A stretch of 32,000 bases of DNA from Candidatus Scalindua sp. (lineage in GTDB: Bacteria > Planctomycetota > Brocadiia > Brocadiales > Scalinduaceae): positions 1,500,001 through 1,532,000 of the forward strand of contig JALDRA010000001.1 of NCBI GenBank assembly GCA_031316235.1, read 5' to 3'. The position numbers and the translations under genes are program-made. Under the pieces are notes generated by a model. The model saw only the letters and a program-made list of their open reading frames with translations, ran no database searches and was not told where the DNA came from. Of the stretch, positions 5,066 through 27,636 are shown piece after piece; position 1 is the first letter of the stretch; each line of letters begins with the position of its first letter.

Positions 5066-5110
5066 GATATACTCATCTCATACTGGATTTCGGATAAAAT
5101 CCGAGATGAA
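5066..5110 (+). repeat. Short copy (5' module only) of the dispersed hairpin repeat, between convergent gene ends; possible bidirectional terminator
   Basis: GATATACTCATCTCATACTGGATTTCGGATAAAATCCGAGAT is identical to the start of the 11327 copy and differs at only a few bases from the start of the 19760 copy. It contains the hairpin TCGGAT-AAA-ATCCGA, followed by a second hairpin GAGAT-GAA-ATCTC. Confidence 0.7.
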
Positions 5111-5115
5111 ATCTC

Positions 5116-6123
5116 TTATAACAGAGACTCAATGATCTTCTTTTTCGGTTCAAATGTGTTTAACTGGCTGAGTCCGAGATTTTCTACCGCAGCCTCTATC
5201 AGCTCCTCTTTCGACTGAGTTTTTATATAGAATGCCCCTGCATCCAGTAATGCTTTTTCGGGTACAAGTCCTACTATTTCACTTCCTGTAGCTTCTGTTC
5301 CGAATTCCCTGGCCAGCTTTTTTACCGTCTCAAATGTTGTATGTATCGATGTCTCCTCAAAATTTGTCAGATTGATTGATACCTGGGTAATATGGTAATC
5401 ATTGAGTTCTACTCCAATCGCCTTTACATATTTCAGTAATCCAGGGACTCTCATGCCCTTACCTTCCTTATTTTCAACCAGAGAACCGGACTCTCTTACC
5501 ATCCGTGCTATTTTATGAGCGATACGCACATCCGTCGTCTTGAGATTCACGTTATAGGCAATCAGGAAAAACCTTGCTCCAATTACCGTAGCACCAGATT
5601 TTCTGACTCTATCGTTGTATTCTGAAGGACCGTAATCAGGTCTCCACTCTTCTATTCTTTTCCTGAGATCTTCATATCCTCCCTGTCTGATATTTTCAAG
5701 GTTTTTTCGCTCTTTAAACCTTGCAGCTGATTCATACAAATACACGGGGATACCAAGCCTTTCTCCAACCTCCCTTCCAAGTTCATTTGCCAACAGTACA
5801 CATTCACCCATCGTTACGTTCGATACCGGTATGATGGGGCAGACATCTGTTGCTCCTATTCTTGGATGTTCGCCCTTCTGCGTTGACATATCAATGAGTT
5901 CTGAAGCCTTTGCTATTGCCTTAAATGCAGCCTCTTTCACAGAAGAAGGCTCCCCAACAAAGGTTACTACGGTCCTGTTATAGTCTTTGTCAGATTCACT
6001 GTTTAAAAGTTTTATATTCTCTGTTGAAACGATAGATGCCTCAATAGCATGTATCGTTTCAAGATTTCTCCCTTCACTGAAATTGGGTACACATTCTACA
6101 ATCTTTTTATTTGTCATAATCAT
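5116..6123 (-). CDS. ftcD: Glutamate formimidoyltransferase (formiminotransferase domain protein)
   Basis: 335-aa ORF with the N-terminal hallmark ECVPNFSEGR. The length fits the two-subdomain formiminotransferase fold. Confidence 0.85.
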   Translation of the reverse strand: MIMTNKKIVECVPNFSEGRNLETIHAIEASIVSTENIKLLNSESDKDYNRTVVTFVGEPSSVKEAAFKAIAKASELIDMSTQKGEHPRIGATDVCPIIPVSNVTMGECVLLANELGREVGERLGIPVYLYESAARFKERKNLENIRQGGYEDLRKRIEEWRPDYGPSEYNDRVRKSGATVIGARFFLIAYNVNLKTTDVRIAHKIARMVRESGSLVENKEGKGMRVPGLLKYVKAIGVELNDYHITQVSINLTNFEETSIHTTFETVKKLAREFGTEATGSEIVGLVPEKALLDAGAFYIKTQSKEELIEAAVENLGLSQLNTFEPKKKIIESLL

Positions 6124-6348
6124 TTATTGTGTCTGATCGAATAAAATTCACGCTATCATTATCCATGAATTGATACCATAAGACGCTTATTATACAAATA
6201 TCAAATTTTCGACTCAATAGAAAATACATGGAAGATTTTTCTTCAGGAAAATTTGAACAAACAGAGTATATCTATAATTGATTGACTAATTATTCGGCAG
6301 AAGGTAGATTTATGTTATAATTAATAATTTACGGATGAGCTAACCAAA

Positions 6349-7680
6349 ATGGAAGATCTGTTTGAAGTAAATGCAAAAGCTGCAAAAAAATCCCCCCTGG
6401 CAGACCGAATGAGGCCACGAAATTTAAGAGAATTTGTTGGACAGGAACATCTCGTTGGTCCCGACAAAATACTCAGAAGATTTGTAGAAAACGAGGAATT
6501 GGTTTCCCTCATATTCTGGGGACCAGCCGGTGTAGGAAAAACTACACTGGCCTTAATCATTGCGGAGGCTATGAAGGCCCATTTTGTCTCATTTTCGGCT
6601 GTATTGTCAGGTGTTAAGGATATCAGGGCTGTTATTTCAGAAGCGAAAGAACAGCTTAAATTTTATGGAAAAAGAACCATCCTCTTTGTCGATGAAATCC
6701 ATAGATTTAACAAGGCCCAGCAGGATGCTTTTCTCCATCATGTAGAAGACGGTACTCTTACGTTAATTGGTGCCACAACAGAAAACCCATCGTTTGAAAT
6801 CAATGCTCCACTTCTTTCCCGGTGTAAGGTGCTGATTCTGGAGCAGCTCACAAAGGAGCACTTGAAAACTATTATGAGCAATGCATTATCAGATTCAGAA
6901 CGGGGCCTTGGTAACCTGCACATAGAGATAGAAAATGATGCCTTTTCCTTTATCCTGGAACATTCCCACGGAGAGGCAAGATTTGCCTTAAATACGCTCG
7001 AATCTGCCGCAATGCTTTCTTCGCCAAACCAGGAAAACAAACGGGTAGTAACCATGGAAATTGCACAGGAATCCATGCAGCAGAAGGCACTTCGTTACGA
7101 TAAAGGAGGCGAGGAACACTATAATGTAATATCGGCCTTTATCAAATCGATGCGGGGGAGTGATCCGGATGCTTCCCTCTATTGGCTCGCCCGTATGCTT
7201 GAAGCCGGGGAAGACCCTCTCTTTATTGCGCGACGCATGGTAATATTCGCCTCTGAGGATATTGGGAATGCTGCTCCGGGAGCCCTCCAGGTAGCCCTGT
7301 CAGTGAAGGAAGCCTTTCATTTCGTTGGAATGCCTGAGGGGTGGATACCGCTGGCACAGGGCGTAACCTATCTGGCAACTTCGCCAAAGAGCAACGCCTC
7401 TTACAAGGCCTACCAGGCAGCATTAAAAGATGTGAAAGATAGAGGAGCCTTAGGAGTACCCCATCACATCAGAAATGCCCCGACTTCACTGATGAAGGAA
7501 ATCGGGTATGGAAAGGGGTACAGATATCCGCATGATTACGGCGGTCATATCGAACAGTCTTATTTACCCAGGGAGTTGCAAAATAAGGAATACTACAAAC
7601 CTACAGACAACGGCTTTGATAAAGAGATCAAAAAGAGGATGGAATATAATAAAGAGAAGAGAAAAAAACCTGCAAAATAG
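6349..7680 (+). CDS. rarA: Replication-associated recombination protein A (MgsA/RarA AAA+ ATPase)
   Basis: Walker A GPAGVGKTTLA and Walker B/sensor LFVDEIHRFNKAQQD. C-terminal MgsA-type region YDKGGEEHYNVISAFIKSMRGSDPDASLYWLARML. Confidence 0.92.
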   Translation: MEDLFEVNAKAAKKSPLADRMRPRNLREFVGQEHLVGPDKILRRFVENEELVSLIFWGPAGVGKTTLALIIAEAMKAHFVSFSAVLSGVKDIRAVISEAKEQLKFYGKRTILFVDEIHRFNKAQQDAFLHHVEDGTLTLIGATTENPSFEINAPLLSRCKVLILEQLTKEHLKTIMSNALSDSERGLGNLHIEIENDAFSFILEHSHGEARFALNTLESAAMLSSPNQENKRVVTMEIAQESMQQKALRYDKGGEEHYNVISAFIKSMRGSDPDASLYWLARMLEAGEDPLFIARRMVIFASEDIGNAAPGALQVALSVKEAFHFVGMPEGWIPLAQGVTYLATSPKSNASYKAYQAALKDVKDRGALGVPHHIRNAPTSLMKEIGYGKGYRYPHDYGGHIEQSYLPRELQNKEYYKPTDNGFDKEIKKRMEYNKEKRKKPAK

Positions 7681-7845
7681 GAAATCGTTTTTTTACGATG
7701 AAAGGTAAATCCAACCATGAAAAAACTCATCGTTCGGGTTAGGTATAATACCTTTTTTTACCTATTGTACCCTGATAGTCAAGTCACCAGAAATAAGATG
7801 AGGAATAAACGGAAAAAATTCAATACGGTAATTATCCTCAGATAT

Positions 7846-8973
7846 CTATTCTCTTGATTCAAATTTTTTCATAAACCGGCGATCAATAAAATCCTTGATG
7901 ATAAAGGCAATCTTACCCTCCAGCACCAGCAGTTTTTTTCGTAAAATCCCGGTACCATCCCCCATATTGAAAATAAGCAGGTATTTTCCACCTGGTTTAA
8001 AAGTCTGGAGACCTGTTCCATCTAATGAAGCCATGAGGTTATGAAAAAGGACCGGGTTTTCCCGTACCGCGTAAACACCGACTTTGTCAAGCGGACGTCC
8101 TTTTAAATAAATACAATCACCTCCTCCGAATATTTCACTATACGTTGTGCACTGAAGGTACTTATTGACAAGGAGTTCACCATCAGGAGCTGTTGGCAAT
8201 CCTGATCTCTCAAAAACAGGTGACGGCTTTACCCCATGAGCGAGAAGAATTAAATCCTGAATATATTTCTGTCCAGACTCCATGGTGATCTCGCCAGTAT
8301 TGATTCCCGTTACAAAAGAGTGTTCCAGAATTTCAATTCCGCGCTTTGTCAAGGACCGAAAAATTCTGGTTCGTACGTTTTCCGGAAAACGATTCATGAA
8401 TTTTTCACCTGAGAAAATTGTTATTCTGGGCATATTTCTGACGAAAAATTTTCCCAGCCTCCAGATGTTACCTGCAATCTCAGCAGCAGAGGGTCCTCCA
8501 CCTATTATACCGATGGTTATTTTCCGCTGTGAGGCAAGTTCAAGAATCCGCTCCTGAAAAGATATAAGTTTTTCAATAGGTTTCACAGGAAAAATATCTC
8601 TGTCTACACCTTTTACGATTGTCATGGGTACATAACTACCGACATTACATGATAGTACGTCATAGGATATCGCTTCCCGGGATTCGAGGTATACGGTTCT
8701 GTCTATCGGATCAACACGGTTGACCTTATCCTGTATAAACACTCCTCCCTGTTTCACGACTATCCGTTTTGTCTCAAAACGGATTTCTGCGGGAGTATAT
8801 GTTTTTCCGAGCATCCCCGGACCCATACCCGAGTAATAGTGGTATTGAGATGGCCCGATAACTGTTACACGGTAGCCTTTTTCAATGAATTTGTGAAGGT
8901 TGGCCAGTGTTAACATGTGAGCGTGTCCACCACCGGCAATTACAAGATGTTTCCCCACTGTTACCTCCGTCAT
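7846..8973 (-). CDS. FAD/NAD(P)-binding oxidoreductase (pyridine nucleotide-disulfide oxidoreductase / Ndh-like)
   Basis: Two dinucleotide-binding motifs (VIAGGGHAH, IIGGGPSAAE) and a C-terminal GGGDC. It is co-directional with the upstream RiPP-like genes and 98 nt downstream of them. Confidence 0.8.
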   Translation of the reverse strand: MTEVTVGKHLVIAGGGHAHMLTLANLHKFIEKGYRVTVIGPSQYHYYSGMGPGMLGKTYTPAEIRFETKRIVVKQGGVFIQDKVNRVDPIDRTVYLESREAISYDVLSCNVGSYVPMTIVKGVDRDIFPVKPIEKLISFQERILELASQRKITIGIIGGGPSAAEIAGNIWRLGKFFVRNMPRITIFSGEKFMNRFPENVRTRIFRSLTKRGIEILEHSFVTGINTGEITMESGQKYIQDLILLAHGVKPSPVFERSGLPTAPDGELLVNKYLQCTTYSEIFGGGDCIYLKGRPLDKVGVYAVRENPVLFHNLMASLDGTGLQTFKPGGKYLLIFNMGDGTGILRKKLLVLEGKIAFIIKDFIDRRFMKKFESRE

Positions 8974-9071
8974 GAATGAAAAAGGATGATAACAATACCT
9001 ATCAGTATCAAAGTCGCTACATAACGCTTTGTAATACCTTATTGTTCATGAGATCTGTTTTCCTTTTGATT

Positions 9072-10358
9072 TCATTTACCACTCATCCATCTTTTAAGGA
9101 TTACGTCTTCTTTGATGCGTGAAACCTCCAACACTATTCTCCCGTACCGTAAAAGAAGTATAAACGGATGAGCCATATAATAGAGATAGAGCCTGGTCGA
9201 GGAGAGAGGTACAGAATATCTCTCAGAAATAAATCCTGGATCGGGAAAAATATAATTCCTTAAAATCCCGGCCTTTTCGCGACAGGTGTGAGCAGCCTGT
9301 AATTGGATGATCTTGGATGGTACTACAGAGTGAGAATCTTCTCTCCTGAGGATTTTCCTGCACATGATGGAGACGAGTTCCCTGTCTCTCCCTTCCGGCG
9401 CAACACAGTCAACTGTTTTACGAATCGTATCATCATTTTCTCCCAGGATTTTCCCTACAATGCAGAGGGTCATAAAAACGGGATCAGCAATTCCATACTG
9501 CTCAGCCTTATGCCTGAGTCTCTCCCCACATATCTTATCGTGAAAGTATCTGATAGTTTGAAAGATATCATGTAGCTGTATAAGTGCCCCCCTGCTCGTA
9601 AAACCTGCACCAAAGCCTTGATATCGATTTTGGTAGCGATGTTTTAAAAAATGGAGACAGAGATGAAAAATGCAGTCTTCCGGACTGAGGATCTGTGCAG
9701 GGAGGCCTGAAATTGTAACCACCATCGCTTCCTTCCTCCACTTCGCAATCATCTCGTTATCAAAATCTCGGATTCGAGACGGATGTATTTTGTTTGCTAT
9801 ATGCCAATGTACTTCTACCGGAACCCTCTTTTCCCGATGGATATAGTTCATGTGATGATGGCGATTCCTTTGATACCAACCAGAAGTTTCTCTCTCATCG
9901 AGAAAATAACCTGCACCGTAGAGTATGCGTTCTGCATCGGGAAGAGCCTGTTTCTTTACGAGGAGATCGATATCACTCATCGGCCTTAACCCAATATCGC
10001 CATACACCGTTTGAGCCAATGCTGCACCCTTGAGTATGATAACTTCTATCCCTCCATTGTCAAACGCCTCTAAAATCCTTTCCAATTCTGCATACAGAAA
10101 CATATTTCTGGCTACCGTATCGTAGTAAGCGGCCTTTAACTTTTCCATAAACTCTACGGGAATTGAGTCGGTTTCCTGGAACGACTTTAAAGAATTGTAG
10201 AGTAATGGCCCTATACCGTGCCAGGATGCAGACGTCCAAATCTCGTCCCAATTAATGGTACCCTTTAGCAGCTCCTTTACCTTTGCCCTTGTATCCTCTG
10301 AAATTTCTGTTCGCGTAGAGCAATGCAAGAGTTGGTTTTCATAAGATAGATTCAACAT
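9072..10358 (-). CDS. Nucleotidyltransferase-family protein (PF14907 / NTP_transf_5-like)
   Basis: 428-aa ORF. VIILKGAALAQTVYGDIGLRPMSDIDLLVKK matches the LKG...R...DIDLLV core of this family. It starts 9 nt after the B2-like gene. Confidence 0.7.
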   Translation of the reverse strand: MLNLSYENQLLHCSTRTEISEDTRAKVKELLKGTINWDEIWTSASWHGIGPLLYNSLKSFQETDSIPVEFMEKLKAAYYDTVARNMFLYAELERILEAFDNGGIEVIILKGAALAQTVYGDIGLRPMSDIDLLVKKQALPDAERILYGAGYFLDERETSGWYQRNRHHHMNYIHREKRVPVEVHWHIANKIHPSRIRDFDNEMIAKWRKEAMVVTISGLPAQILSPEDCIFHLCLHFLKHRYQNRYQGFGAGFTSRGALIQLHDIFQTIRYFHDKICGERLRHKAEQYGIADPVFMTLCIVGKILGENDDTIRKTVDCVAPEGRDRELVSIMCRKILRREDSHSVVPSKIIQLQAAHTCREKAGILRNYIFPDPGFISERYSVPLSSTRLYLYYMAHPFILLLRYGRIVLEVSRIKEDVILKRWMSGK

Positions 10359-10367
10359 AGATAGCTT

Positions 10368-10937
10368 TCAAAGATTATCAACCGAATTTCTCTCTTCCTC
10401 TGGAAAGATATACGTTATCTTGTAGCTCTTTACTGCCTCGCTATTTTTTTCAAGAAAGATTCTTCCCTTATAAAGGAGCCATGCATGTCCTTCAAGTCTC
10501 TTTTGTGGAGAACCAGCCGGCAACATCCTGTTAAATCTTACTCCAAGGCAGAGACTTACCTCCATTCCAGACTTCCGTAAAAGGTGGTAGAGTACTAAAG
10601 ATCGTTTGAGGCAGGGATTTTTACCCGTAAAATATTTCAGACTCAGGACGTAGTCCGTAAACCGAACAACTTTATCCTGAAATTCCTCACTATCCGAACT
10701 CTTATTGATCTTCAAGGTTCTCGGTGTAAAAACTCTCATTAATCCCGGGAGAGAAAAAAATCTCAGGACCAGAGGCAATGTGGTTATGAAAAAGAGTATT
10801 TGTATAAAGATCCAGATATCTTCGACTGTTTTGAAGTTTTTTCTCATTTTTTTGTAAACGTTCACCGCAGAGTTTTCTCTATTTTTTTTGAATGAGTGCT
10901 TGTACGGAAACCCTGTGTTTGAACGAAAACTACCCAT
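10368..10937 (-). CDS. Transglutaminase-like cysteine peptidase, lasso B2-type (PF13471-like), with an N-terminal TM helix
   Basis: NPCLKRSLVLYHLLRKSGMEVSLCLGVR...GHAWLLYKGRIF has the Cys...His(AW) arrangement of McjB-C/B2 leader peptidases. The start overlaps the PqqD-like stop by 8 nt (ATGGGTAG). An alternative start is at 10847. Confidence 0.75.
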   Translation of the reverse strand: MGSFRSNTGFPYKHSFKKNRENSAVNVYKKMRKNFKTVEDIWIFIQILFFITTLPLVLRFFSLPGLMRVFTPRTLKINKSSDSEEFQDKVVRFTDYVLSLKYFTGKNPCLKRSLVLYHLLRKSGMEVSLCLGVRFNRMLPAGSPQKRLEGHAWLLYKGRIFLEKNSEAVKSYKITYIFPEEERNSVDNL

Positions 10938-11217
10938 CTACAACCTTTACTAATTTTTCACGAACAAGCTCGCGGACAAGAGCGAGAACACTTTCCCCTG
11001 CCTTTTCAGGTGAAACATCAAACTCTTCCAGAAGCTTTGTCCCTATCTCATCAAGTGTTAAGTCTCCACTCAACAGTCCCCAGATACGGACTCCTGTCTC
11101 ATTGAGGGTAAAGTACGCCTTGGTCCCCAGATGAAGAAGAACGGCCTCTTTCCCCTCCTCTAATTCCGTTACCACAACATCTGTATCGGGTTTGACTTTC
11201 TGATGTAACTCTATCAT
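10930..11217 (-). CDS. PqqD-family RiPP recognition element (lasso B1-type chaperone)
   Basis: 95-aa ORF with typical PqqD size and pattern (EAVLLHLGTKAYFTLNETGVRIWGLL...LDEI...L..EFDVS.E....V..L..L). The RBS AGAGGT lies about 9 nt upstream of the ATG. Confidence 0.8.
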   Translation of the reverse strand: MIELHQKVKPDTDVVVTELEEGKEAVLLHLGTKAYFTLNETGVRIWGLLSGDLTLDEIGTKLLEEFDVSPEKAGESVLALVRELVREKLVKVVDG

Positions 11218-11326
11218 TTATATTACCTCTTTAAAATATGTTCGGCCAGGAATGAACACGAATTATAATGTGATAATTCTAAATAACGATACTTTCGTAT
11301 TCAAGCCGTTCTTTGCCAAAATTTAG

Positions 11327-11490
11327 GATATACTCATCTCATACTGGATTTCGGATAAAATCCGAGATAAAATTGAGCGCGTAAAATCCTCGGCGCTTTT
11401 TGTCCGGGGATACCTTCACCAGGATTTGGTTTCCAGTAAAACCAAAAGCCAAATCGGTTTTAGTACAATTGCCAACTTTAAGCCAGTAGC
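11327..11490 (+). repeat. Full-length copy (~165 bp) of the dispersed hairpin-rich repeat, inserted between the PqqD-like and radical-SAM genes
   Basis: By-eye alignment to 19760-19925 gives about 8 mismatches plus one 3-nt indel over the first ~140 nt. Internal hairpins are TCGGAT-AAA-ATCCGA, TCCTCGG...CCGGGGA and AAAACC...GGTTTT. Confidence 0.8.
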
Positions 11491-11532
11491 TTTTATTTTC
11501 TAATCATTCGAGTAAATTCGTGACCAAATTAT

Positions 11533-12531
11533 TTATACCTTCCAAACAGAACTCGACCAGGGACTTTCGTGATCATCTTTCAGCCAACCTACTTTATTAA
11601 AATAATTCAAGCAATAAAAGCAGGGAAAATAGTCTAAATCTTTATTTTTACCTTTACGGTAGCGTTCACGCTTATCCTGGTGAAACGTTTTATTCATTTG
11701 AATAAAACGTTTCAGTGCCTCTGCAAAACTCATCATATCCAGTTTGCCTATTATATCTCCACCTGTTGCACCGTTTCCATAACCAGACAGGTGACAGCAT
11801 AAGGTGACATTACCCCTCCAGTCAATGTTCAACTCCTTTGACTGAAGCGGACTGCAGGGGAAGAGATTGGTCGTATGATATCCAGGAGCCATGATTATGG
11901 GCATGGGAAAGGATTGTTGAAGTCCTCCGATCAATCCCTCGATCACCACACACTCCTCAGGAGAAATGGTAAGGCCCTTTTCAACATTCCCGGGTGTCGG
12001 CATGAGATGGCAAAACCTCAACCCACGACTCCCCAGTTTCGTTGCAAGCTCAGCCATCTCCTTTAATTCTCCCTTATTGTAAAACATAACGGTCGTATTA
12101 ATGGTAAAGGGAATATCTTTTACCATGCAGATACTGAAAGCCTTCATGAGTCGACGATATGCCCCCCTCCCTCGCACCTTATCGTGTACCTCCTCCCTGG
12201 CACTATCCAGACTAAATGTAATCCCTCTCAGTCTGTCACGATAGGGAAGTAACTGGCTATACACGTCAGTGAAATTCCATCCGTTTGTGACGAAGCCAAA
12301 GTTATATCCAGCCTCATTCACATTCTTGAGTATTTCATTGAATCGGGGGTGAAGTGTCGGTTCTCCGCCCGTAAAAGAGAGGTGATCAAACCCGTGGTCC
12401 CTGGAGTTTTGGAGGATCTTATCCAGAATCTCTGTTTCAAGATTTTCTCCGTCAGCACTATGTCTAGTATCAAGACAGTGCTGGCAACTTACATTACAGC
12501 GATTTGTTAGTTCGATTACGATACTCGGCAT
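11533..12531 (-). CDS. Radical SAM enzyme with a C-terminal SPASM/twitch-like Cys-rich domain (peptide maturase candidate)
   Basis: CX3CX2C motif CNVSCQHC and the SAM-binding motif SFTGGEPTL. C-terminal cysteines lie in CSPLQ...NVTLCCHLSGYG...YFPCFYCLNYF. Confidence 0.85.
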   Translation of the reverse strand: MPSIVIELTNRCNVSCQHCLDTRHSADGENLETEILDKILQNSRDHGFDHLSFTGGEPTLHPRFNEILKNVNEAGYNFGFVTNGWNFTDVYSQLLPYRDRLRGITFSLDSAREEVHDKVRGRGAYRRLMKAFSICMVKDIPFTINTTVMFYNKGELKEMAELATKLGSRGLRFCHLMPTPGNVEKGLTISPEECVVIEGLIGGLQQSFPMPIIMAPGYHTTNLFPCSPLQSKELNIDWRGNVTLCCHLSGYGNGATGGDIIGKLDMMSFAEALKRFIQMNKTFHQDKRERYRKGKNKDLDYFPCFYCLNYFNKVGWLKDDHESPWSSSVWKV

Positions 12532-12549
12532 TTAATGTAAATCTTAATT

Positions 12550-12752
12550 TCTAATGTCTAAATCCTAAATAAATTCAAAGACATACTATTAAGATGTAAA
12601 GGGGTGCAGTACAATACTGGTTAAAGATTTCGGTGTATTGTTACCCAATCCAATAACATCTTTAGCAAATTTGAATGTTCTGTCTTCTAAGTCCTAATGT
12701 TTTGAACCTTGTATTTTTGTCATTTGACATTGTTTAGGATTTAGTGCTTAGA
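12550..12752. repeat. AT-rich insert of ~200 bp bounded by imperfect 22-bp inverted repeats (MITE-like) in the kinase-rSAM spacer
   Basis: TCTAATGTCTAAATCCTAAATA (12550-12571) matches the reverse complement of 12731-12752 at 18/22 positions. The perfect 12-bp core is CTAAATCCTAAA / TTTAGGATTTAG. Confidence 0.45.
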
Positions 12753-12812
12753 TTTTAGAATTTATAATAATTAATTCGTCGCCTTCCGAATCTCCATTCT
12801 CAATTATAGGGT

Positions 12813-13823
12813 TCACACTTTAGGTCTTGGCACTATCCCTGATAACACTTCGGTAATCTTCTCCGGTTCTTCATACAAATCACGACCCGCAAGGAGTTGA
12901 TAACTATCTGTCTGATAAACAAGTTGCTTAAGGGCCTCAAGATGATTCTTCGCCGTCTCTCTGTTAAACAGTAGAGATGCACTCTGCCTTGTCAATCTGA
13001 CAAGTGCAGATGTTGGATCAACCGGGATCAACCTGCTTTCTGGTTCCGACACTATGCTTGTAAATAACAATATCTTTGGTACCGCCTGAGAACAAAATTG
13101 ATCGGGATACAGAGACGTCACATCTAAAAACCGCTTTGTGCCCGCTCCGCTTGTTGATTCTTCAAGATAAGGCAAAATCTCGGGATAGTGACGTACTAAT
13201 TGGGGATCGAGATAAAATTTATTTCGAAAGGCAAAAACTTCTACTCTGCTTTCAAAACACTTCATCAAAAGGGCATCATCTGAGACATAGTGCCACCCCT
13301 GGTTGACAAGACTGAGTGTCGCAGTGGATTTTCCACTACCGGAATCTCCCAGAAGCAGAAACCCTAACCCGTCCCTGACAAGCGAGGCAGCATGGAGTTC
13401 ATAGACACCTCGGGGTGAAAGAAGATGGATAAGGCCGATAAGAAAGAGATTATACTTTGAGAGAGATGTTTTTTCCTGAAAAGAGCCATGGATGGTAAGA
13501 ATACCTGAACCTTCATAAGGATTTAACTGAAACAGGGATGATCCGTCTGTAATGTAAACAGTATCATCTAACCTGAAAATTGATACGTCGTAGCATGAAA
13601 ACGGCACTGATGCAGCATCAGGGCTCTTGACAGGAACTTCTGTAGAAGTAAATTGAAGGTTCAGGTGAACGGGTGTGCCTGTATCGCTCAACTTCATAAA
13701 AGGAAAGGGGTTAAAGAGTTTCTGTATTTCATCTTCAACCCCATTCCCTTCACACCGAACCGCAATGGTCAGTCCATACAGGGAATAATGACAGATACTC
13801 GCATTATCCATCCGCTTCCCCAT
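12813..13823 (-). CDS. HPr kinase-related serine/threonine kinase (HprK-like, RiPP-associated type)
   Basis: LHAASLVRDGLGFLLLGDSGSGKSTATLSLVNQGWHYVSDD matches the HprK C-terminal P-loop region. It starts 26 nt after the precursor-like ORF. Confidence 0.75.
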   Translation of the reverse strand: MGKRMDNASICHYSLYGLTIAVRCEGNGVEDEIQKLFNPFPFMKLSDTGTPVHLNLQFTSTEVPVKSPDAASVPFSCYDVSIFRLDDTVYITDGSSLFQLNPYEGSGILTIHGSFQEKTSLSKYNLFLIGLIHLLSPRGVYELHAASLVRDGLGFLLLGDSGSGKSTATLSLVNQGWHYVSDDALLMKCFESRVEVFAFRNKFYLDPQLVRHYPEILPYLEESTSGAGTKRFLDVTSLYPDQFCSQAVPKILLFTSIVSEPESRLIPVDPTSALVRLTRQSASLLFNRETAKNHLEALKQLVYQTDSYQLLAGRDLYEEPEKITEVLSGIVPRPKV

Positions 13824-13849
13824 CTTTCCGGCATCTGCTCATACCAACG

Positions 13850-14128
13850 TCACGGTGTAAATGTGCCAAAAAAACCGGCCGTAATCTTCGCAGCGTCCCC
13901 GTGTTTCACAAGTTTCGGTTCAATAAACGTTAATTTAGGTACCGTAAAAAACTTTTTTGTCTGCGAAGCGTCCGTGCTCATAGCTTGAATCTTTTTTCTT
14001 CCAACTGGCTGTTTTTCTCCCATACCTTTTTCATCCTCCATGTTTTTAGCTGGTGGGCGACTCTCAAATGTAAAGACCGCCCTATCCAGATTGGCATTTA
14101 CGTAAAAGTCTTCCCCTGTTCCCTTCAT
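13850..14128 (-). CDS. Candidate RiPP precursor peptide (maximal 92-aa ORF; alternative starts at 14041, 14023 and 13981 give 63, 57 and 43 aa)
   Basis: It is the first gene of the operon. The C-terminal 43 aa are MSTDASQTKKFFTVPKLTFIEPKLVKHGDAAKITAGFFGTFTP, which contain FIEPKLVKHGDAAKITA|G, matching the lasso leader consensus YxxPxLx3Gx5Tx followed by a core Gly. GGAGG lies 11 nt upstream of the 14023 ATG. A promoter-like site would make the 14128 ATG leaderless. Confidence 0.55.
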   Translation of the reverse strand: MKGTGEDFYVNANLDRAVFTFESRPPAKNMEDEKGMGEKQPVGRKKIQAMSTDASQTKKFFTVPKLTFIEPKLVKHGDAAKITAGFFGTFTP

Positions 14129-14136
14129 TTGGTAAC

Positions 14137-14165
14137 ATTATATACGAAACTGCCGTGCAATTCAA
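14137..14165 (-). promoter_or_regulatory. Sigma70-like promoter candidate for the RiPP-like operon
   Basis: On the minus strand, TTGAAT (14165-14160) is followed by a 17-nt spacer and then TATAAT (14142-14137). The predicted TSS near 14130 is 2 nt upstream of the ATG at 14128. Confidence 0.35.
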
Positions 14166-14569: not shown

Positions 14570-14597
14570 TCCCGGACAAAAAGCGCCGAGGACTTTG
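14570..14597 (-). repeat. Inverted fragment (~28 nt) of the dispersed repeat's central hairpin module
   Basis: The reverse complement CAAAGTCCTCGGCGCTTTTTGTCCGGGA matches ...AATCCTCGGCGCTTTTTGTCCGGGGA at 11385-11410. Flanking similarity is weak. Confidence 0.5.
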
Positions 14598-15365: not shown

Positions 15366-16394
15366 TCATGGCACCAGGACCATTTTCCCAAACTGTTTTC
15401 TCCCTATCATCTTAGTCTGCGCCGCTACAGCGTCTTTCAGCTGAAATACCGAGTCAATGACAGGTTTTAATTTTCCGGATTCAACGAGGCGTAACACCTC
15501 CATAAGCTCCTTCCTGCTCCCCATGTAACAGCCGGAAATGGAGAGCTGCCTGACAAAGAAAGACCTCAGATCAATAGTCACTGCTGAACCACTGGTGGCA
15601 CCGCACGTAACAACTCTTCCCCCCCGTTTGAGGCATAAAAGGCTCTTCTCAAATGTCTCCGGTCCAATATGCTCGAACACAACATCAACACCCGTACCAT
15701 GGGTAAACTCTTTTACCTTTTCCGCAAAGTCGTCCTGTAGATAATTGATTCCATAATCTGCACCCAGTTCCCCGGCCTTTTCCAGTTTATCCGCTGTGCC
15801 AGCCGTCGTTATCACCTCAGCACCGCTCAGTTTTGCTATCTGAATTGCTGCACTGCCGATTCCGCTGCCGGCAGCATGAACCAACACCGTTTCCCCTGCC
15901 CTCAGACCTGCACGTGTCTTGAGCATATGCCATGCGGTTAAAAATACGAGCGGTACCGCAGCCCACTCTTCAAATGACAGCGTATCAGAAATCTCAATAA
16001 TGTTGCCGGCAGGGACCTTAACATATTCGGCATAGCCTCCGTCAATTTGAAATCCCATTATCTTGAATTCACTACAGAGACTCTCATTGACAGAAAGGCA
16101 ATATTCACACTTTCCACAACTTATTCCAGGTGCGACAAGTACCCTCTGTCCCGGATGTAGCTGTTTCACCTCAGTACCGACCTGATTTATCTCACCACTG
16201 ATCTCACACCCGAGGATATGAGGCAGAGAGATGGTAACACCGGGTATACCTTCTCTTACCCAGATATCGAGATGGTTCAAACCGCAGGCCTTGACCTCTA
16301 CCAGCACCTCTGAAGGAGAAATCTCAGGCACGGCACAGTCAGTGTATACTAATTTGTCTGTATCTCCATGCTCATAAAAGACTACAGCCTTCAT
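15366..16394 (-). CDS. Zinc-type medium-chain dehydrogenase/reductase (alcohol dehydrogenase / quinone oxidoreductase family)
   Basis: Structural-zinc Cys cluster CGKCEYCLSVNESLC, Rossmann motif HAAGSGIGSAAIQ, and N-terminal GLNHLDIW. Confidence 0.85.
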   Translation of the reverse strand: MKAVVFYEHGDTDKLVYTDCAVPEISPSEVLVEVKACGLNHLDIWVREGIPGVTISLPHILGCEISGEINQVGTEVKQLHPGQRVLVAPGISCGKCEYCLSVNESLCSEFKIMGFQIDGGYAEYVKVPAGNIIEISDTLSFEEWAAVPLVFLTAWHMLKTRAGLRAGETVLVHAAGSGIGSAAIQIAKLSGAEVITTAGTADKLEKAGELGADYGINYLQDDFAEKVKEFTHGTGVDVVFEHIGPETFEKSLLCLKRGGRVVTCGATSGSAVTIDLRSFFVRQLSISGCYMGSRKELMEVLRLVESGKLKPVIDSVFQLKDAVAAQTKMIGRKQFGKMVLVP

Positions 16395-16558
16395 TATTTC
16401 TCCACTACCTGAAAAGCGTCTTTATTTGCACCGCATGCCGGACAGACCCAGTCATCAGGCAGCTCTTCAAACGGCGTATTTGGTTCAATACCGCCCATAC
16501 TGTCACCTTTTCTTGGATCGTATATATAGCCACAAACCGTACATTCCCAACTAGACAT
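16394..16558 (-). CDS. Rubredoxin (54 aa)
   Basis: Two CxxC knuckles, [12 protein letters not shown] and [13 protein letters not shown]. The ATG at 16558 lies 7 nt after AGGAGG, so the track's 91-aa version is over-extended. Its stop TAA overlaps the dehydrogenase ATG (TAATG at 16392-16396). Confidence 0.9.
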
Positions 16559-16882
16559 AAACTTCCCTCCTAAATGTATGTTAATTCTTTTAAAAAAAGT
16601 TGAGTGCGAGTTCCATTCTTCGCCGGTGCCATTTTGGGGCTGCCATGCTGTATCATGAAACACCGCCACTACTCCCGAACTTTCATCTTACCCGATATAT
16701 CTGGATAAAACAAAGTCTTTTTTCGTCCCTGTCCCTCTTAAACGATTCATCGAATTTACAAACAAACCGTATGGAGAAAACAGTGTTGCTTGAAGAACTG
16801 CCGATTAAACAGCTAGTTCAGGAGCAGCACAATTAAACCGGTTCCCTTCTATTTCCAGTCGCTGATTAAGGCTTCCGGGGCT

Positions 16883-17437: not shown

Positions 17438-17692
17438 ATGATTAAAAAAAAATTGTTTAATAAGTTGATTTCTGGTTCAAAAAATATTAGATTCTCAGAA
17501 GTAACTGCATGTGCTGAGTCATTTGGTTTCCATTTGGACCGTATTAATGGCAGCCACCATATTTACTACCATCAAGACGTGCCAGAATTATTAAATTTAC
17601 AGAACATAAAAGACAAAGCCAAACCATATCAGGTAAAGCAATTATTACAACTTATCGAAAAATATAATCTTCAATTGGGAGAGAAGAAATGA
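17438..17692 (+). CDS. hicA: Type II toxin HicA-family mRNA interferase
   Basis: 84 aa. GFHLDRINGSHHIY matches the HicA G-x-x-x-x-R-x-x-GSHH core. Its stop overlaps the hicB start (ATGA). Confidence 0.8.
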   Translation: MIKKKLFNKLISGSKNIRFSEVTACAESFGFHLDRINGSHHIYYHQDVPELLNLQNIKDKAKPYQVKQLLQLIEKYNLQLGEKK

Positions 17693-17907
17693 AAGATTAT
17701 CATATTAATATATTTTATAGTGATGAAGATAATGGATATATTGCGGACATACCGGATTTAAAACATTGTTCTGCTTTTGGTGCAACCCAAGAAGAAGCAC
17801 TTAAGGAGGCTTTAAAGGCAAAAGACGCATGGCTTGAGACAGCTCGATCAAGGAATAAACCTATACCAAGCCCTCAATACCGCCCCGTAATTTACCAAGT
17901 TGTTTAA
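17689..17907 (+). CDS. hicB: Type II antitoxin, HicB family
   Basis: 72 aa. YHINIFYSDEDNGYIADIPDLKHCSAFGATQEEALKEALKAKDAWLE is a typical HicB N-terminal fold sequence. It is translationally coupled to hicA. Confidence 0.8.
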   Translation: MKDYHINIFYSDEDNGYIADIPDLKHCSAFGATQEEALKEALKAKDAWLETARSRNKPIPSPQYRPVIYQVV

Positions 17908-19759: not shown

Positions 19760-19925
19760 TATACTCATCTCATTCTGGATTTCGGATAAAATCCGAGATA
19801 AAATTGAGCGAGTAAAGTCCTCGGCTTTTGTCCGGGGATACCTTCACCAGGATTTGGTTTCCGGTAAAACCGAAAACCAAACCGGTTTTAGTATAATTAA
19901 CAACGTATGTTAAGCCGGTTAGTCT
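19760..19925 (+). repeat. Full-length copy (~165 bp) of the dispersed hairpin-rich repeat, upstream of the Fe-ADH gene
   Basis: See the 11327 copy. The 61-aa ORF on the track (19770-19955, minus) lies entirely inside this repeat and is probably spurious. Confidence 0.8.
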
Positions 19926-20127: not shown

Positions 20128-21886
20128 ATGAACCGTGGCACAGTAAAATTAGATCCATTGGCCAAAGGATTACTCCAAGGAGTAACCGTCCGCCCAATTT
20201 CCCGCCAGGAACGAAATGGATGGGACAAACTGATGCAACAGCATCATTACCTTGGGTACCGTGCTTTCGTAGGAGAATCAATCCGTTATATAGCCGAGTC
20301 AAATGGACGTTGGGTAGCTCTTATCGGCTGGGCATCTGCCGCCTTTCAATGTGAGGTTCGAGATAAATGGATTGGGTGGCCTCCTATAATAAAAAACCAA
20401 CGCCTTCGATTTTTAGCAAATAACACTCGCTTCTTAATCCTACCAGGGATACACATACCAAACCTCGCTTCCCGAATTCTAGCCCTTAATCTCAAACGAT
20501 TGTCTCAAGATTGGAATGGCATGCATGGACATCCAATTTATCTTGCAGAGACGTTTGTAGATTACCGCCATTTCAAGGGTACCTGTTACAAGGCAGCTGG
20601 ATGGACATTTTTAGGATACACCAAGGGATATTCCAAATCGTCCCATGGCTATATTCGGCACAATAAACCCAAGATGATCTTTGTACACACTGTTGGATCA
20701 AGGAGCCGTGAATATCTGAATTTCCCTGAATTTAGCCTGGAATCAAAAAAGGAGCTGAAACCAATGAAATTATCTTTAAAAAATGCTGAAGCGCTTACCA
20801 AATTTTTGTTACAAATCCCCGAGCATCGTAAGCCAAGAGGCGTTCGCCACAGGAGGCGTTCTATTTTAGCAGTTTCTATTTGTGCTATCATGTGCAATGC
20901 CTGGAGCTTTGCTGCTATCGCGGAATGGGGTCAGCGCTGTTCACAAACCATGCTCAAGCGACTCTCATGCCGTTACAACACAAAAACAAAGCAGTACATG
21001 CCTCCGAGTGAACCCACTATCAGGAGATTTTTACAGAATGTGGATGCAGAATCTGTTGATAAGGCACTTTCGAGTTGGTTTCAATCCATTTGTGACAAAG
21101 ACTTGCCTATTGCGGTTGATGGAAAAACCCTTTGTGGCGCGAGACAATCTAACGGTCAACAAGTTCATTTGCTTTCCGCGTTTCTTCATGAGCAGGGAAT
21201 GGTACTTGCACAAACTCAAGTAGATCGCAAAACAAATGAAATACCGATGGTACCAATACTATTTGATGATGTAGATTTACAAGACCGTGTGGTTACTTTT
21301 GACGCCTTACACACACAGAAGGAGACAGCCCGTTATTTGGTCGAAGATAAAAAGGCTGAATATGTATTCACTGTCAAAGATAATCAAAAGACTTTAAAAC
21401 AAGACATTGTTGACTTAAATCTCAACTCTTTTCCCCCCTCAACACATAACTACTGAAAAAGGTCATGGCCGCATTGAAATCCGCAAGATCTGGACAAGTG
21501 CTGAGTTAACAGGGTACCTTGATTTTCCAAATCATAATCAGGTATTCTGTATCCATAGAAAATTCACAGAAGTCAAAACAGGTAAAAAGACGGAAGAAAT
21601 CGCTTACGGAATTACCAGCTTAACTCAAGAAAAGGCAGACCCGAAAACGGTTCTTAAAATCACCAGGGGGCACTTGGGAATAGAAAATAGTCTTCATTAT
21701 GTACGTGACACAGCCTTCAATGAAGATCGTTCGCAGATACGTACTCGCAATGCTCCACAGTCTATGGCTGCTTTGAAGAATCTAACGATTGGGCTTTTTC
21801 GTTTTTTCAAAGTAACAAATATTGCCAGGGCTCTTAGAGATTTTGCAGCAAGACCTTTTCTTGCACTTCAATTACTTCGGTGGTAA
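20128..21886 (+). pseudogene. DUF4338-like domain fused to an ISAs1-family DDE transposase, interrupted by a +1 frameshift (IS ends not identified)
   Basis: The N-terminal part (HHYLGYRAFVGESIRYIAE...AAFQCEVRDKWIGW...NNTRFLILP...NLASRILAL...ETFVD...CYKAAGW) looks like DUF4338. The ISAs1 core (DGKTLCGA...FDALHTQ) follows. The frame stops at TGA 21454-21456, and the conserved C-terminus EKGHGRIEIR...HLGIENSLHYVRDTAFNEDRSQIR continues in the +1 frame to 21886. A C6 run lies at 21433-21438. Confidence 0.8.
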
Positions 21887-26180: not shown

Positions 26181-26300
26181 GCAGGACACACTAGCAATTA
26201 CTTTTGAAGGTTGAAACGATAATTCTCGATAATGGTATTTTACTGAGATTTCAGATTACAGATAAGAAGTTGAAATTGGTTTGAGAGATTGGAAAGAAAC

Positions 26301-26960
26301 ATGAATGCAGGCAGATCAACTGAGTATTATTGCAGTATTGTTCAAGAGTTACGCAGACTACCTACAGAAACAGAATGGGTTGAATTCAAGCATAATAAAG
26401 CAGCTGCTGAGGAGATCGGTCAGTATCTCTCCGCGCTCTCTAACCCAGCGGCTCTAGTCGGAAAAGTTAAGGCTTATCTGATCTGGGGAATTGAAGATGG
26501 AAGTCATGACATTATTGGAGCCACATTTAAACCAAGAGAGTCTAAAGTTGGGGATGAGGAAGTTGAAAACTGGTTGTTGCGGCATCTATCGCCAAAGATT
26601 AAGTTCGATTTTTATGAATTGACTTTGGAGGACAAGCCGGTAGTTTTATTGGAAATCGGATCTGCATTTCGTCATCCGGTTCAATTTAAGAATATAGAAT
26701 ATATTCGAGTAGGATCATACCTGAAAAAACTCAAAGATTTTCCTGAAAAAGAACGTGAGTTGTGGCGTATTTTTGACAAGATACCGTTTGAGCGGGGCAT
26801 CGCTCAAGATAATCTTGCGGCAGAAGATGTTTTGTTGTTGATTGATTACCCTGCATGTTTTTCTCTTCTCAACTTACCGTTACCGGATTCACGTGACGGA
26901 ATTATCAAGGCCTTAGAATCAGAGGAAATGTACACATTTAGAATAACGATATGCAACTGA
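26301..26960 (+). CDS. AlbA_2 (Schlafen-like putative DNA-binding) domain protein, apparently C-terminally truncated
   Basis: PTETEWVEFKHN...AYLIWGIEDGSHDIIG is AlbA_2-like. Full-length relatives usually carry an extra C-terminal ATPase-like/HTH region. The ORF stops inside a 17-nt direct repeat at the edge of the HUH-gene insertion. Confidence 0.6.
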   Translation: MNAGRSTEYYCSIVQELRRLPTETEWVEFKHNKAAAEEIGQYLSALSNPAALVGKVKAYLIWGIEDGSHDIIGATFKPRESKVGDEEVENWLLRHLSPKIKFDFYELTLEDKPVVLLEIGSAFRHPVQFKNIEYIRVGSYLKKLKDFPEKERELWRIFDKIPFERGIAQDNLAAEDVLLLIDYPACFSLLNLPLPDSRDGIIKALESEEMYTFRITICN

Positions 26961-26973
26961 GGGAGTTTTTGCT

Positions 26974-27023
26974 CGTTCCCAAACTCCGGTTTGGGAATGC
27001 ATTGTTTGCGAAACTCTGTTTCG
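26974..27023. repeat. Left hairpin pair (REP-like / terminal inverted repeat) flanking the HUH gene
   Basis: Hairpin TTCCCAAAC-TCCG-GTTTGGGAA (26976-26997) is followed by CGAAAC-TCT-GTTTCG (27009-27023). The reverse complement of this block matches the right block at 27585-27636. Confidence 0.75.
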
Positions 27024-27037
27024 TATGAGTAAGTAAA

Positions 27038-27574
27038 GTGAGAAGCAGATACAGGATTACAGAAAAAGAGGGGATATATTTTGTAACTTCTACAATAGTG
27101 GAATGGATACCCGTTTTTACAACACAGAAGTATTGTGACATAGTTATAGATTCGCTCAGGTTTTGTAAAGACCATAAGGGGTTAAGATTATATGCATTTG
27201 TTATCTTGGAAAATCACTTTCACCTGGTTGTATCAGCCCCTGAATTATCGGACGCATTAGCTTCATTAAAGAAGTTTACTGCAAAAGAGATAATTAATGC
27301 GTTAAAGCAAGATAATAATCGCTGGTTACTCAATCAACTTGCTTTTTTTAAAAAGAGAAACAAAATGGCAAGCGACTTTCAGGTGTGGCAGGAGGGTTTT
27401 CATCCGCAATTGATACTGAATGACAAGATGTTGATTCAAAAAGTAGAGTATATCCATCAAAATCCGGTAAGATACGGTTTAGTAGATGAGCCTGAACATT
27501 GGCGTTATAGCTCTGCTCGAAATTACCGTACTGATGATCATTCGATTATTAAAACGGATGAGTTGCCTGATTGA
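27038..27574 (+). CDS. HUH-motif Y1 transposase-like protein (IS200-like / REP-associated tyrosine transposase family)
   Basis: 178 aa with a GTG start. HUH motif in ILENHFHLVV. Conserved C-terminal VEYIHQNPVRYGLV...WRYSSARNY. It is flanked on both sides by inverted hairpin modules. Confidence 0.8.
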   Translation: MRSRYRITEKEGIYFVTSTIVEWIPVFTTQKYCDIVIDSLRFCKDHKGLRLYAFVILENHFHLVVSAPELSDALASLKKFTAKEIINALKQDNNRWLLNQLAFFKKRNKMASDFQVWQEGFHPQLILNDKMLIQKVEYIHQNPVRYGLVDEPEHWRYSSARNYRTDDHSIIKTDELPD

Positions 27575-27584
27575 TGGTTTTATC

Positions 27585-27636
27585 GAGAAACAGAGTTTCT
27601 CCGGAAATCTCGTTCCCAAACCGGAGTTTTGGAACG
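27585..27636. repeat. Right hairpin pair (inverted copy of the left pair) flanking the HUH gene
   Basis: GAGAAAC-AGA-GTTTCTC (27585-27601) is followed by CGTTCCCAAA-CCGGAG-TTTTGGAACG (27611-27636). The loop CCGGAG is the reverse complement of the left loop CTCCGG. Confidence 0.75.

Follow-up and report, generated by a model that had tools for sequence, protein, structure and literature searches.

A six-gene cassette in a Scalindua genome

The window analysed here is a stretch of 32,000 nucleotides (nt) from the anammox planctomycete Candidatus Scalindua sp., contig JALDRA010000001.1, and all coordinates are window positions (1-32,000). Its minus strand carries a six-gene cassette of the kind that produces RiPPs (peptides made by the ribosome and then modified post-translationally), and the product of the cassette is most likely a small modified peptide of a kind not yet described. 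In the direction of the genes, it begins with a precursor peptide gene (13850..14023), whose open frame reaches 14128. This is followed by an HprK-type (ScmC-like) peptide kinase of 336 residues (12813..13823), a radical S-adenosylmethionine (SAM) enzyme of 332 residues (11533..12531), and a discrete PqqD-type RiPP recognition element (RRE; B1-like, 95 residues, 10930..11217). The cassette is completed by a lasso-B2-type transglutaminase-fold cysteine leader peptidase (189 residues, 10368..10937) and a PF14907 nucleotidyltransferase of the PsmN/LppN/BsfN type (428 residues, 9072..10358). A pyridine-nucleotide-disulfide oxidoreductase (TIGR03169-like, 7846..8973) lies next to it on the same strand as a neighbour rather than a member.

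A sequence-only reading of this DNA had described seven open reading frames (ORFs) running in one direction from 14128 to 7846, and all seven were found there. Its junction distances of 26, 9 and 98 nt and its 8-nt overlap were read back identically. From precursor to oxidoreductase, the junctions measure 26 nt (precursor/kinase), 281 nt, 315 nt, an 8-nt overlap ATGGGTAG (PqqD/B2), 9 nt and 98 nt. The two long junctions are non-coding: the 281-nt gap (12532..12812) holds a remnant of a 23S-rRNA-IVP gene and the 315-nt gap (11218..11532) contains a 145-nt dispersed repeat. None of the six cassette ORFs is truncated, and their catalytic residues are intact. A promoter and terminator scan returned the same counts as shuffled controls and is uninformative on operon structure, and an Rfam scan of the window gave no match.

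A precursor family with a lasso-type leader and a conserved core

The precursor frame spans 92 residues, but the peptide probably has 57 (MGEKQPVGRKKIQAMSTDASQTKKFFTVPKLTFIEPKLVKHGDAAKITAGFFGTFTP), starting at Met36 of the frame (~14023, MGEKQ...), because it is homologous to annotated 57-residue genes of Scalindua AMX11 and SCAELEC01. This candidate start has a GGAGG upstream. The C-terminus of the longer frame gives a near-threshold match to the lasso leader model NF033521 (lasso_leader_L3, 17.3 bits versus a cut-off of 19).

Related loci contain 62 ORFs homologous to the precursor, and 52 non-redundant precursors were aligned for the motif statistics. Each of the 52 contains the register [F/Y](-17)xxP(-14)xL(-12)x3G(-8)x5T(-2)x, that is [F/Y]xxPxLx3Gx5Tx. 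The window copy, FIEPKLVKHGDAAKITA (13877-13927), has Phe at position -17. Lasso leaders have Tyr(-17), Pro(-14), Leu(-12) and a penultimate Thr(-2) (PMC10368454), and YxxP is the sequence recognised by the lasso RRE (PMC12710340). The precursors share a layout in which a variable hydrophilic N-terminus is followed by [K/R]x[F/W]xEPKLxF[I/V]EPKLTKHGxxxx[I/V]T, 0-7 variable residues and FFGxF[S/T]P, sometimes with a short tail. Many carry variable C-terminal extensions past the motif (PPSV, PPASD, NGVD).

A cut after Thr(-2)-x would leave a core of mostly 7-14 residues, and in the window the 8-residue GFFGTFTP (13853-13876). Ser or Thr lies inside the strict [F/L]FxxFxP pattern in 45 of the 52 precursors. 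Five of the seven others (xxPFSP/GAFSP variants and the truncated L018 core) carry Ser/Thr beside a conserved Phe. Every motif-bearing core has at least one Ser/Thr, usually in F-[S/T]-P. GFFGTFTP contains no acidic residue, and Asp or Glu occurs at core positions 7-9 in one precursor of the 52, whose core N-termini are variable. A lasso macrolactam needs an Asp/Glu acceptor in the core (PMC10368454). Judged from its sequence, the predicted substrate itself would exclude a lariat, since the core has no acceptor Asp/Glu and its N-terminus is not conserved; this argument is independent of the missing cyclase. A lasso cyclase acting in trans was rejected on the same core sequence.

Predicted maturation enzymes

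The kinase matches PF07475 (HprK-related, E 1.9e-7) and has the motif GDSGSGKST. Its best NCBIfam matches (HprK_rel_A, HprK_rel_B and ScmC) all score far under their cut-offs, and orthologous kinases match the Pfam family PF27840 'ScmC' in precomputed annotations. The catalytic motif H144-G159-G162-G164-K165-S166-D182-D183, whose residues are conserved in 51 orthologues, has a spacing identical to that of H148-G163-G166-G168-K169-S170-D186-D187 in characterised lasso-precursor kinases including BsfK (PMC10368454). An exhaustive HMMER search with the kinase returned 226 representative clusters (50% identity level) at E<=1e-30.

The radical SAM enzyme matches PF04055 (E 1.1e-21) with the motif CNVSCQHC, and its best NCBIfam matches are SPASM/Twitch-type maturases. 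The C12-x3-C16-x2-C19 motif stands at the extreme N-terminus with no fused RRE. Because the protein begins directly with the radical SAM motif and has no RRE of its own, it would need the discrete PqqD protein, as PqqE does; PqqD serves PqqE. Besides C12, C16 and C19, five cysteines (C226, C245, C246, C304, C307) are invariant across 19 sequences. The C-terminal pattern CX13GX4C...CX2C is of the Twitch or truncated SPASM type, and neither a full seven-Cys SPASM motif nor a PF13186 match was found in the protein. SkfB and PqqE are the nearest solved relatives by sequence. The predicted model (predicted local distance difference test, pLDDT, 81) has BlsE, SkfB, viperin, SuiB and PqqE as its nearest folds. 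The best homologue, from Candidatus Scalindua sp. AMX11, is 88% identical. Scores against equivalog cut-offs are low throughout: 83.2 versus 265 for MftC, 66.2 versus 381 for PqqE, 72.5 versus 400 for ScmE and 79.3 versus 400 for ScmF.

The RRE is recognised by PF05402 (68.3 bits, E 7e-19). Its top NCBIfam matches are two lasso PqqD models, below their cut-offs (51.8 versus 80 and 46.7 versus 70) and ahead of ScmD and PqqD. The peptidase exceeds the cut-off of the lasso B2 model NF033537 (48.4 versus 33 bits) and matches PF13471 (E 6e-11). Its catalytic Cys109 and the His of G-H151-A-W are conserved in 31 orthologues. Its start may lie at Met31 (10847), giving 159 residues, in which case the 8-nt overlap with the PqqD gene disappears. 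The nucleotidyltransferase scores 198 bits with PF14907 (E 2.6e-58), and its S-D-I-D metal site is conserved in 39 orthologues. With their catalytic residues kept, the kinase, peptidase, nucleotidyltransferase and radical SAM enzyme look active. None of the six cassette proteins is covered by a specific model in NCBIfam release 20.

These profile searches bore out the domain calls of the sequence-only reading for the GDSGSGKST kinase, the PqqD-like RRE, the transglutaminase-like peptidase with its Cys...GHAW signature and the PF14907-like nucleotidyltransferase, as well as for the radical SAM and oxidoreductase domains. Its radical SAM/SPASM assignment stands for the CNVSCQHC motif and the Cys-rich C-terminus; the full SPASM part does not, as there are five C-terminal cysteines in a Twitch-like or partial arrangement and PF13186 gives no match. 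The reading had also reported that a lasso cyclase and an ATP-binding cassette (ABC) exporter are absent from the operon and the window. Indeed, the 16 other large window ORFs include neither an Asn-synthase-like protein nor an ABC exporter, and no cyclase or exporter recurs among 69 large flanking ORFs of related loci.

Conservation of the six-gene set

A scan of one genome per GTDB species with the radical SAM profile returned 80 loci, about 65 of which encode a radical SAM orthologue at 36-88% identity. ORFs were called in all collected loci and searched iteratively with the seven window proteins, and co-occurrence was counted in the 45 non-redundant loci that have 5 kb or more of sequence on either side. 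The kinase and the PqqD protein each occur in 42 of these 45 loci, the precursor in 37, the nucleotidyltransferase in 36 and B2 in 32; all six components are present in 24, and a GNAT acetyltransferase in 10. With its gene order shuffled, the cassette recurs across at least 12 phyla, in about 65 species-level genomes. The sequence-only reading had named absence of the gene set from every other genome as grounds against it, and the survey shows the opposite.

At least three gene orders are seen. Anammox bacteria have precursor-kinase-radical SAM-PqqD-B2-nucleotidyltransferase, Nitrospira and Acidobacteriota have B2-precursor-kinase-radical SAM-PqqD-nucleotidyltransferase, and other Acidobacteriota have PqqD-nucleotidyltransferase-B2-precursor-kinase-radical SAM. 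The hosts include Brocadiia (Scalindua, Brocadia, Jettenia, Kuenenia, Loosdrechtia, Anammoxibacter), Novipirellula, Nitrospirota, Thermodesulfovibrionia, Desulfobacterota, Chloroflexota, Trueperaceae, Acidobacteriota, Acidimicrobiia, Entotheonella, Ignavibacteriales, Omnitrophota, Schekmanbacteria, Sericytochromatia and Gammaproteobacteria. Nearly all of these genomes are metagenome-assembled.

The Kuenenia stuttgartiensis cassette (L001, CP049055.1, 1914040-1931071) is broken by several insertion sequence (IS) elements, a reverse transcriptase gene and a Mu-like transposition module, and no kinase or precursor is detectable near its radical SAM gene. The slot directly upstream of the kinase in Trueperaceae is taken by a lipoprotein of ~204 residues or longer that ends ...GAAWFFAE/P and has no Pfam or NCBIfam match (L048:2177-2791, L049:6040-6654, L050:6405-7016, L054:6413-7033, L056:5224-6993 and L057:5945-6967). 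The small FFGTFSP precursors sit kilobases away in these genomes.

Proposed pathway

We consider it probable (roughly 0.6) that the window copy is intact and represents a widespread RiPP cassette, so far undescribed, that descended from phosphorylated-lasso machinery, with a Twitch-type radical SAM enzyme replacing the macrolactam synthetase. A RiPP pathway with lasso-style leader recognition and cleavage and the accessory kinase and nucleotidyltransferase, and with a radical SAM enzyme instead of a cyclase, had already been proposed from the window sequence alone. The conservation of the gene set, the leader register, the core and the absence of a cyclase support it.

The discrete PqqD-type RRE would bind FxxPxL and present the precursor to each enzyme in turn; in the lasso system, BsfB1 speeds both phosphorylation and B2 cleavage (PMC10368454). 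The radical SAM enzyme would abstract a hydrogen within FFGxF[S/T]P and install a cross-link (e.g. a small cyclophane or ether) or an epimerisation. This is the least defined step, with a C-C or C-O cross-link at the invariant Phe of F-[S/T]-P, epimerisation and desaturation as candidates. The HprK-type kinase would phosphorylate the Ser/Thr of the core motif, as such kinases do with a precursor Ser in paeninodin, pseudomycoidin, Bsf and linear polyphosphorylated peptides (LPP) (PMC6993621, PMC10368454, PMC13381572). The PF14907 enzyme may then elaborate the phosphate, by analogy with pseudomycoidin, where PsmN is required for hexose additions to the phosphorylated peptide (PMC6993621). Finally, B2 would cut after Thr(-2)-Ala(-1) and release a decorated, non-lariat peptide of ~8 residues.

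Several observations weigh against this proposal. The Ser/Thr position is not fixed: in Brocadiaceae, V, R or A takes the F-x-P position, with the hydroxyl residue two places earlier (GTF, GSF). Cys, Trp, Tyr, Lys and acidic residues are all lacking from the core, so the radical SAM reaction is not deducible from sequence. At some loci, B2 and/or the nucleotidyltransferase are absent within 8 kb, with both absent from 6 of 45, and no exporter is conserved across loci. The window operon is interrupted by two non-coding insertions and has no counterpart of the GNAT gene of its sister genomes. Moreover, a simple free-peptide model does not explain the close linkage of the cassette to the family of secreted proteins described below.

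Secreted proteins with a new C-terminal domain

Clustering of unassigned ORFs neighbouring the cassette loci identified large signal-peptide proteins (200-1450 residues) that share a C-terminal domain (CTD) of ~125 residues ending ...F.FFVDVLG. At 24 of the 45 loci, a CTD gene lies within 1.5 kb of the cassette, usually co-directional with the precursor and immediately upstream of it. A partial list comprises L003:3640-5991, L004:2564-4099 and 6108-6995, L007:3800-6550, L010:2358-4865, L012:4613-6535, L015:2239-4659, L016:2705-6268, L017:3799-6090 and L018:3833-6637. The domain has no Pfam or NCBIfam model. It is predicted with high confidence to form a β-sandwich (pLDDT 92.8), and a fold search returned generic β-sandwich neighbours only, at E >= 2e-3 (CBM2-like, macroglobulin receptor-binding domain, adaptin ear). 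The Kuenenia CTD and its tail, used as a single query sequence, matched three proteins; a profile was needed, and it recovered 95 protein clusters in which the domain is C-terminal to SBBP, delta-60, FG-GAP, RHS, NHL and subtilase modules. In two neighbouring proteins, the CTD follows 'choice-of-anchor' domains (NF041518 in L003, PF26766 in L006).

In Brocadiaceae (Brocadia, Kuenenia, Loosdrechtia, H5_AMX3), the CTD proteins run on past the domain into a K/R-rich stretch and GFFGRFRP(K), which is the precursor core motif. Such tailed or fused proteins are encoded at L013:435-1712 and 5146-9519 and at the L016, L017 and L018 sites listed above (L016:2705-6268, L017:3799-6090, L018:3833-6637), and also include P0121 and P0218. 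The metagenomic protein P0218 ends ...VIKPSLTKFGKGSGVTKKGFFRRFRP, which aligns with the stand-alone leader and core FIEPKLTKHGDATKITAGFFGTFTP and matches the precursor hidden Markov model at E 1.2e-5; the leader-like IKPSLTKFGKGSGVT precedes its core motif. Tails of this type look like a gene fusion of a CTD protein with a downstream precursor. Such a fusion would tie the peptide functionally to the secreted CTD proteins. The window has no CTD gene. AMX11 does have CTD genes, and the synteny between the window and AMX11 stops just upstream of the precursor.

Fifteen loci share a protein of ~175-190 residues that has a membrane anchor at its N-terminus and is encoded directly upstream of a CTD gene, B2 or the precursor (sites include L015:1708-2232, L012:3358-3933, L014:5524-6048, L020:6110-6685, L029:5787-6293, L036:5723-6274 and L042:5822-6349). 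It has no Pfam or NCBIfam match and may be a further component.

We tentatively speculate, at low confidence, that the cassette and the CTD proteins could form one system, in which the FFGxF[S/T]P peptide, modified by the radical SAM enzyme and phosphorylated, would be the dedicated partner (ligand, anchor or tag) of the CTD, a domain carried by diverse secreted β-propeller and repeat proteins; in Brocadiaceae the peptide would be fused to these proteins in cis. If so, this would be a RiPP in cell-surface protein display, or a C-terminal protein tag made by a radical SAM enzyme and a kinase, rather than a free bioactive peptide. The link, if real, would point to a cellular rather than an antibiotic role for the peptide.

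A separate reading, in which the C-termini of the secreted CTD proteins are the true clients, the cassette modifies or processes a C-terminal FFGxFxP tag that serves to anchor or sort them, and the precursors that stand alone are detached versions of it, seems unlikely to us. The proximity of the CTD genes upstream on the same strand, the K/R-rich GFFGRFRP(K) ends in Brocadiaceae, the recognisable leader and core behind the CTD of P0218, and the position after 'choice-of-anchor' domains, where sorting signals usually lie, speak for it. However, most CTD proteins stop right after the domain and have no FFGxFxP tail, and the Brocadiaceae tails have neither an RRE-binding leader nor a Ser/Thr. 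Stand-alone precursors occur at nearly all loci, including those with fused tails, and the window carries no CTD gene at all. In addition, the enzymes are cytoplasmic, whereas these clients carry signal peptides.

An alternative, less likely cofactor-type reading

The cassette could instead work like the pathways for pyrroloquinoline quinone (PQQ; PqqA/D/E) and mycofactocin (MftA/B/C/E/F), where the peptide is a scaffold. The F-[S/T]-P region would then become a small phosphorylated or nucleotidylated intracellular molecule. Such a product would fit the lack of a conserved exporter and the location of the motif at or near the precursor C-terminus. The gene architecture parallels mycofactocin in combining a precursor, a discrete RRE, a Twitch/SPASM enzyme, a peptidase and group-transfer enzymes, and the better matches in NCBIfam and the PDB include MftC and PqqE. 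Yet the scores fall far under the MftC and PqqE cut-offs (83 versus 265 and 66 versus 381), and many precursors extend variably past the motif. The same motif also ends large secreted proteins, and there are no conserved redox partner genes, the adjacent oxidoreductase not being conserved. We regard a cofactor-type product as improbable.

Cassette boundaries and insertions

The sequence-only reading had counted the FAD/NAD oxidoreductase in the operon. Its domain was confirmed (PF07992, E 1.9e-25); its membership was not. As a seventh member it was rejected, with no homologue in 88 loci and synteny that ends before the gene. Nucleotide similarity to the Scalindua AMX11 locus spans the cassette only, from ~9000, just past the nucleotidyltransferase stop, to ~14195, just upstream of the precursor. 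Therefore, the genomic context of the cassette differs from that in sister genomes, and the two breakpoints mark its boundaries.

The 315-nt gap contains the 145-nt dispersed repeat at 11329-11476. Another copy lies at 19760-19904, a partial one at 5068-5133 and a fragment at 14571-14596, at the synteny breakpoint upstream of the precursor. The full copies are 91-95% identical to each other, and the repeat also occurs at unrelated sites in other Scalindua genomes. Within the 281-nt gap, 12612-12779 is 93% identical to the start of a 23S-rRNA-IVP gene at the same AMX11 junction, and imperfect inverted repeats span 12532-12579 and 12723-12770. Repeat insertions had been proposed for both long gaps; this stands for the 315-nt gap and fails for the 281-nt gap, which holds the IVP-gene remnant and no repeat family. 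The window has also cleanly lost a GNAT acetyltransferase gene. Four other Scalindua loci keep one between the kinase and radical SAM genes, and in the other Scalindua genomes it lies between the kinase and the IVP gene.

These features would suit a cassette that is decaying and silent in the window genome, with two insertions (the IVP-gene remnant and the 145-nt repeat filling the two large gaps), a GNAT gene deleted relative to the four other Scalindua loci, and separation from CTD genes at a break (~14195) that adjoins a repeat fragment. Against this, the six ORFs are full length and keep their catalytic residues, and AMX11, too, has gene insertions at these two junctions. The GNAT gene appears to be accessory, because only 10 of the 45 loci have one. 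We think decay quite unlikely.

A conventional lasso pathway that uses the cassette B1/B2 proteins with a cyclase and an exporter encoded elsewhere in the genome would account for the lasso-type leader, RRE and B2, and our inspection covered 32 kb of the genome, but it is scarcely credible given a core without Asp/Glu (present at positions 7-9 in one of 52 cores, although a macrolactam needs one; PMC10368454), no recurrent cyclase in the ~65 related loci and a core N-terminus that is not conserved.

Other genes in the window

The other large ORFs of the window encode RodA/FtsW, a B12-type radical SAM enzyme, a sigma-54 activator, formiminotransferase, MgsA, a HAD hydrolase, two alcohol dehydrogenases, rubredoxin, HicAB, transposases and a type I restriction-modification operon. 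This operon has a Schlafen/AlbA_2 gene and an IS200/Y1-type transposase between hsdS and hsdR (26289-27638). The transposase gene (27038-27574) is bounded by 26-nt inverted repeats at 26972-26997 and 27613-27638. In the ORF at 20128-21456, DDE_Tnp_1_assoc and DDE transposase domains are joined to an N-terminal region that is DruA-like, and the same architecture occurs at L001:2531-3859, beside the IS-disrupted K. stuttgartiensis cassette. A low-GC stretch between the two alcohol dehydrogenase genes contains the rubredoxin gene and a HicA/HicB-like toxin-antitoxin pair (16394-16669, 17438-17907); the HicAB assignment was read from the translations only.

Comparison with known systems

The phosphorylated and glycosylated lasso clusters (paeninodin, pseudomycoidin, Bsf) resemble the cassette in the YxxPxL leader register (-17 to -12) with Thr(-2), the discrete PqqD-type RRE, the B2 cysteine peptidase, the HprK-type kinase motif and the PF14907 enzyme. 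Among the features of a lasso cluster, the leader register, the PqqD-type RRE and the B2 peptidase are therefore present. A macrolactam synthetase and an ABC exporter are absent from the window and the recurrent neighbours, the window core has no Asp/Glu at positions 7-9 (one of 52 homologues does), and a radical SAM enzyme is present. Furthermore, the core motif FFGxF[S/T]P is kept from phylum to phylum, in contrast to the hypervariable cores of lasso peptides.

The PQQ and mycofactocin pathways share with the cassette a stand-alone PqqD-type RRE serving a Twitch/SPASM radical SAM enzyme that has no RRE, followed by a peptidase and group-transfer enzymes. The window enzyme has both the CX3CX2C motif and the C-terminal auxiliary-cluster cysteines of SPASM/Twitch maturases. 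The cassette precursors, however, have no Glu/Tyr and no C-terminal Val-Tyr, and the MftC and PqqE equivalog cut-offs are missed.

The closest described systems are SynChlorMet (SCM) and LPP, and the cassette falls outside both. SCM and the HPr-rel-A systems (NCBIfam ScmC/D/E/F; TIGR04352/04353) reportedly originate from Haft and Basu in 2011, and we know of no characterisation of either. They likewise bring together HprK-like and PqqD-like proteins with a radical SAM/SPASM enzyme. The cassette differs from SCM in having one radical SAM enzyme rather than two, as well as B2, the PF14907 enzyme and a lasso-type leader. Its proteins score well below the SCM equivalog cut-offs (ScmC 25.8 versus 125, ScmD 33.4 versus 100) and those of HPr-rel-A (TIGR04352 kinase 41.8 versus 200, TIGR04353 PqqD-family chaperone 17 versus 35).

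The sequence-only reading had stated that pairs of an HprK-related kinase and a PqqD-family protein were only catalogued, with no product assigned. This no longer holds, as a study has since characterised the LPP family of Bacillota (Popov et al., Nat Commun 2026, PMC13381572). LPP systems are also cyclase-less and combine a YxxP-leader precursor, a stand-alone RRE, a kinase of the HprK-like type and an uncharacterised nucleoside triphosphate (NTP) transferase. The cassette has the corresponding kinase, RRE and PF14907-type enzyme and no cyclase. LPP systems, in contrast, have a SipW-like signal peptidase I where the cassette has B2, an MsbA-like exporter and no radical SAM enzyme, and they are confined to Bacillota (PMC13381572). 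Neither a SipW-like peptidase nor an MsbA-like exporter was found in the window or among the recurrent neighbours. The precursors differ too: LPP has YxxPxVLxHQxIxFETxxS with a variable C-terminus (PMC13381572) and a phosphorylated Ser3, and the cassette has ...PKLTKHGDxxxIT and FFGxF[S/T]P, with Phe at core position 3.

In our literature searches, no paper turned up in which an HprK-type kinase and a radical SAM RiPP enzyme work as a pair. The searches did surface the LPP precedent and a fosfazinomycin preprint of 2026, in which lasso-type parts are likewise put to use outside lasso peptides. The cassette is apparently a real, conserved and undescribed RiPP cassette, and probably a new class built from known enzyme families. 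It has probably been overlooked because its hosts, which include anammox bacteria, Nitrospirota, Acidobacteriota, Chloroflexota, Trueperaceae and Entotheonella, have nearly all either not been cultured or are difficult to grow. The small size of the pathway puts heterologous reconstitution within reach, and it would offer a core motif conserved across phyla and a radical SAM reaction on a substrate of only Phe, Gly, Ser and Pro. It would be the second independent case, after LPP, of lasso machinery re-used without a cyclase. This bears on how RiPP classes evolve: the class-defining enzyme would have been swapped and the leader, RRE and peptidase kept.

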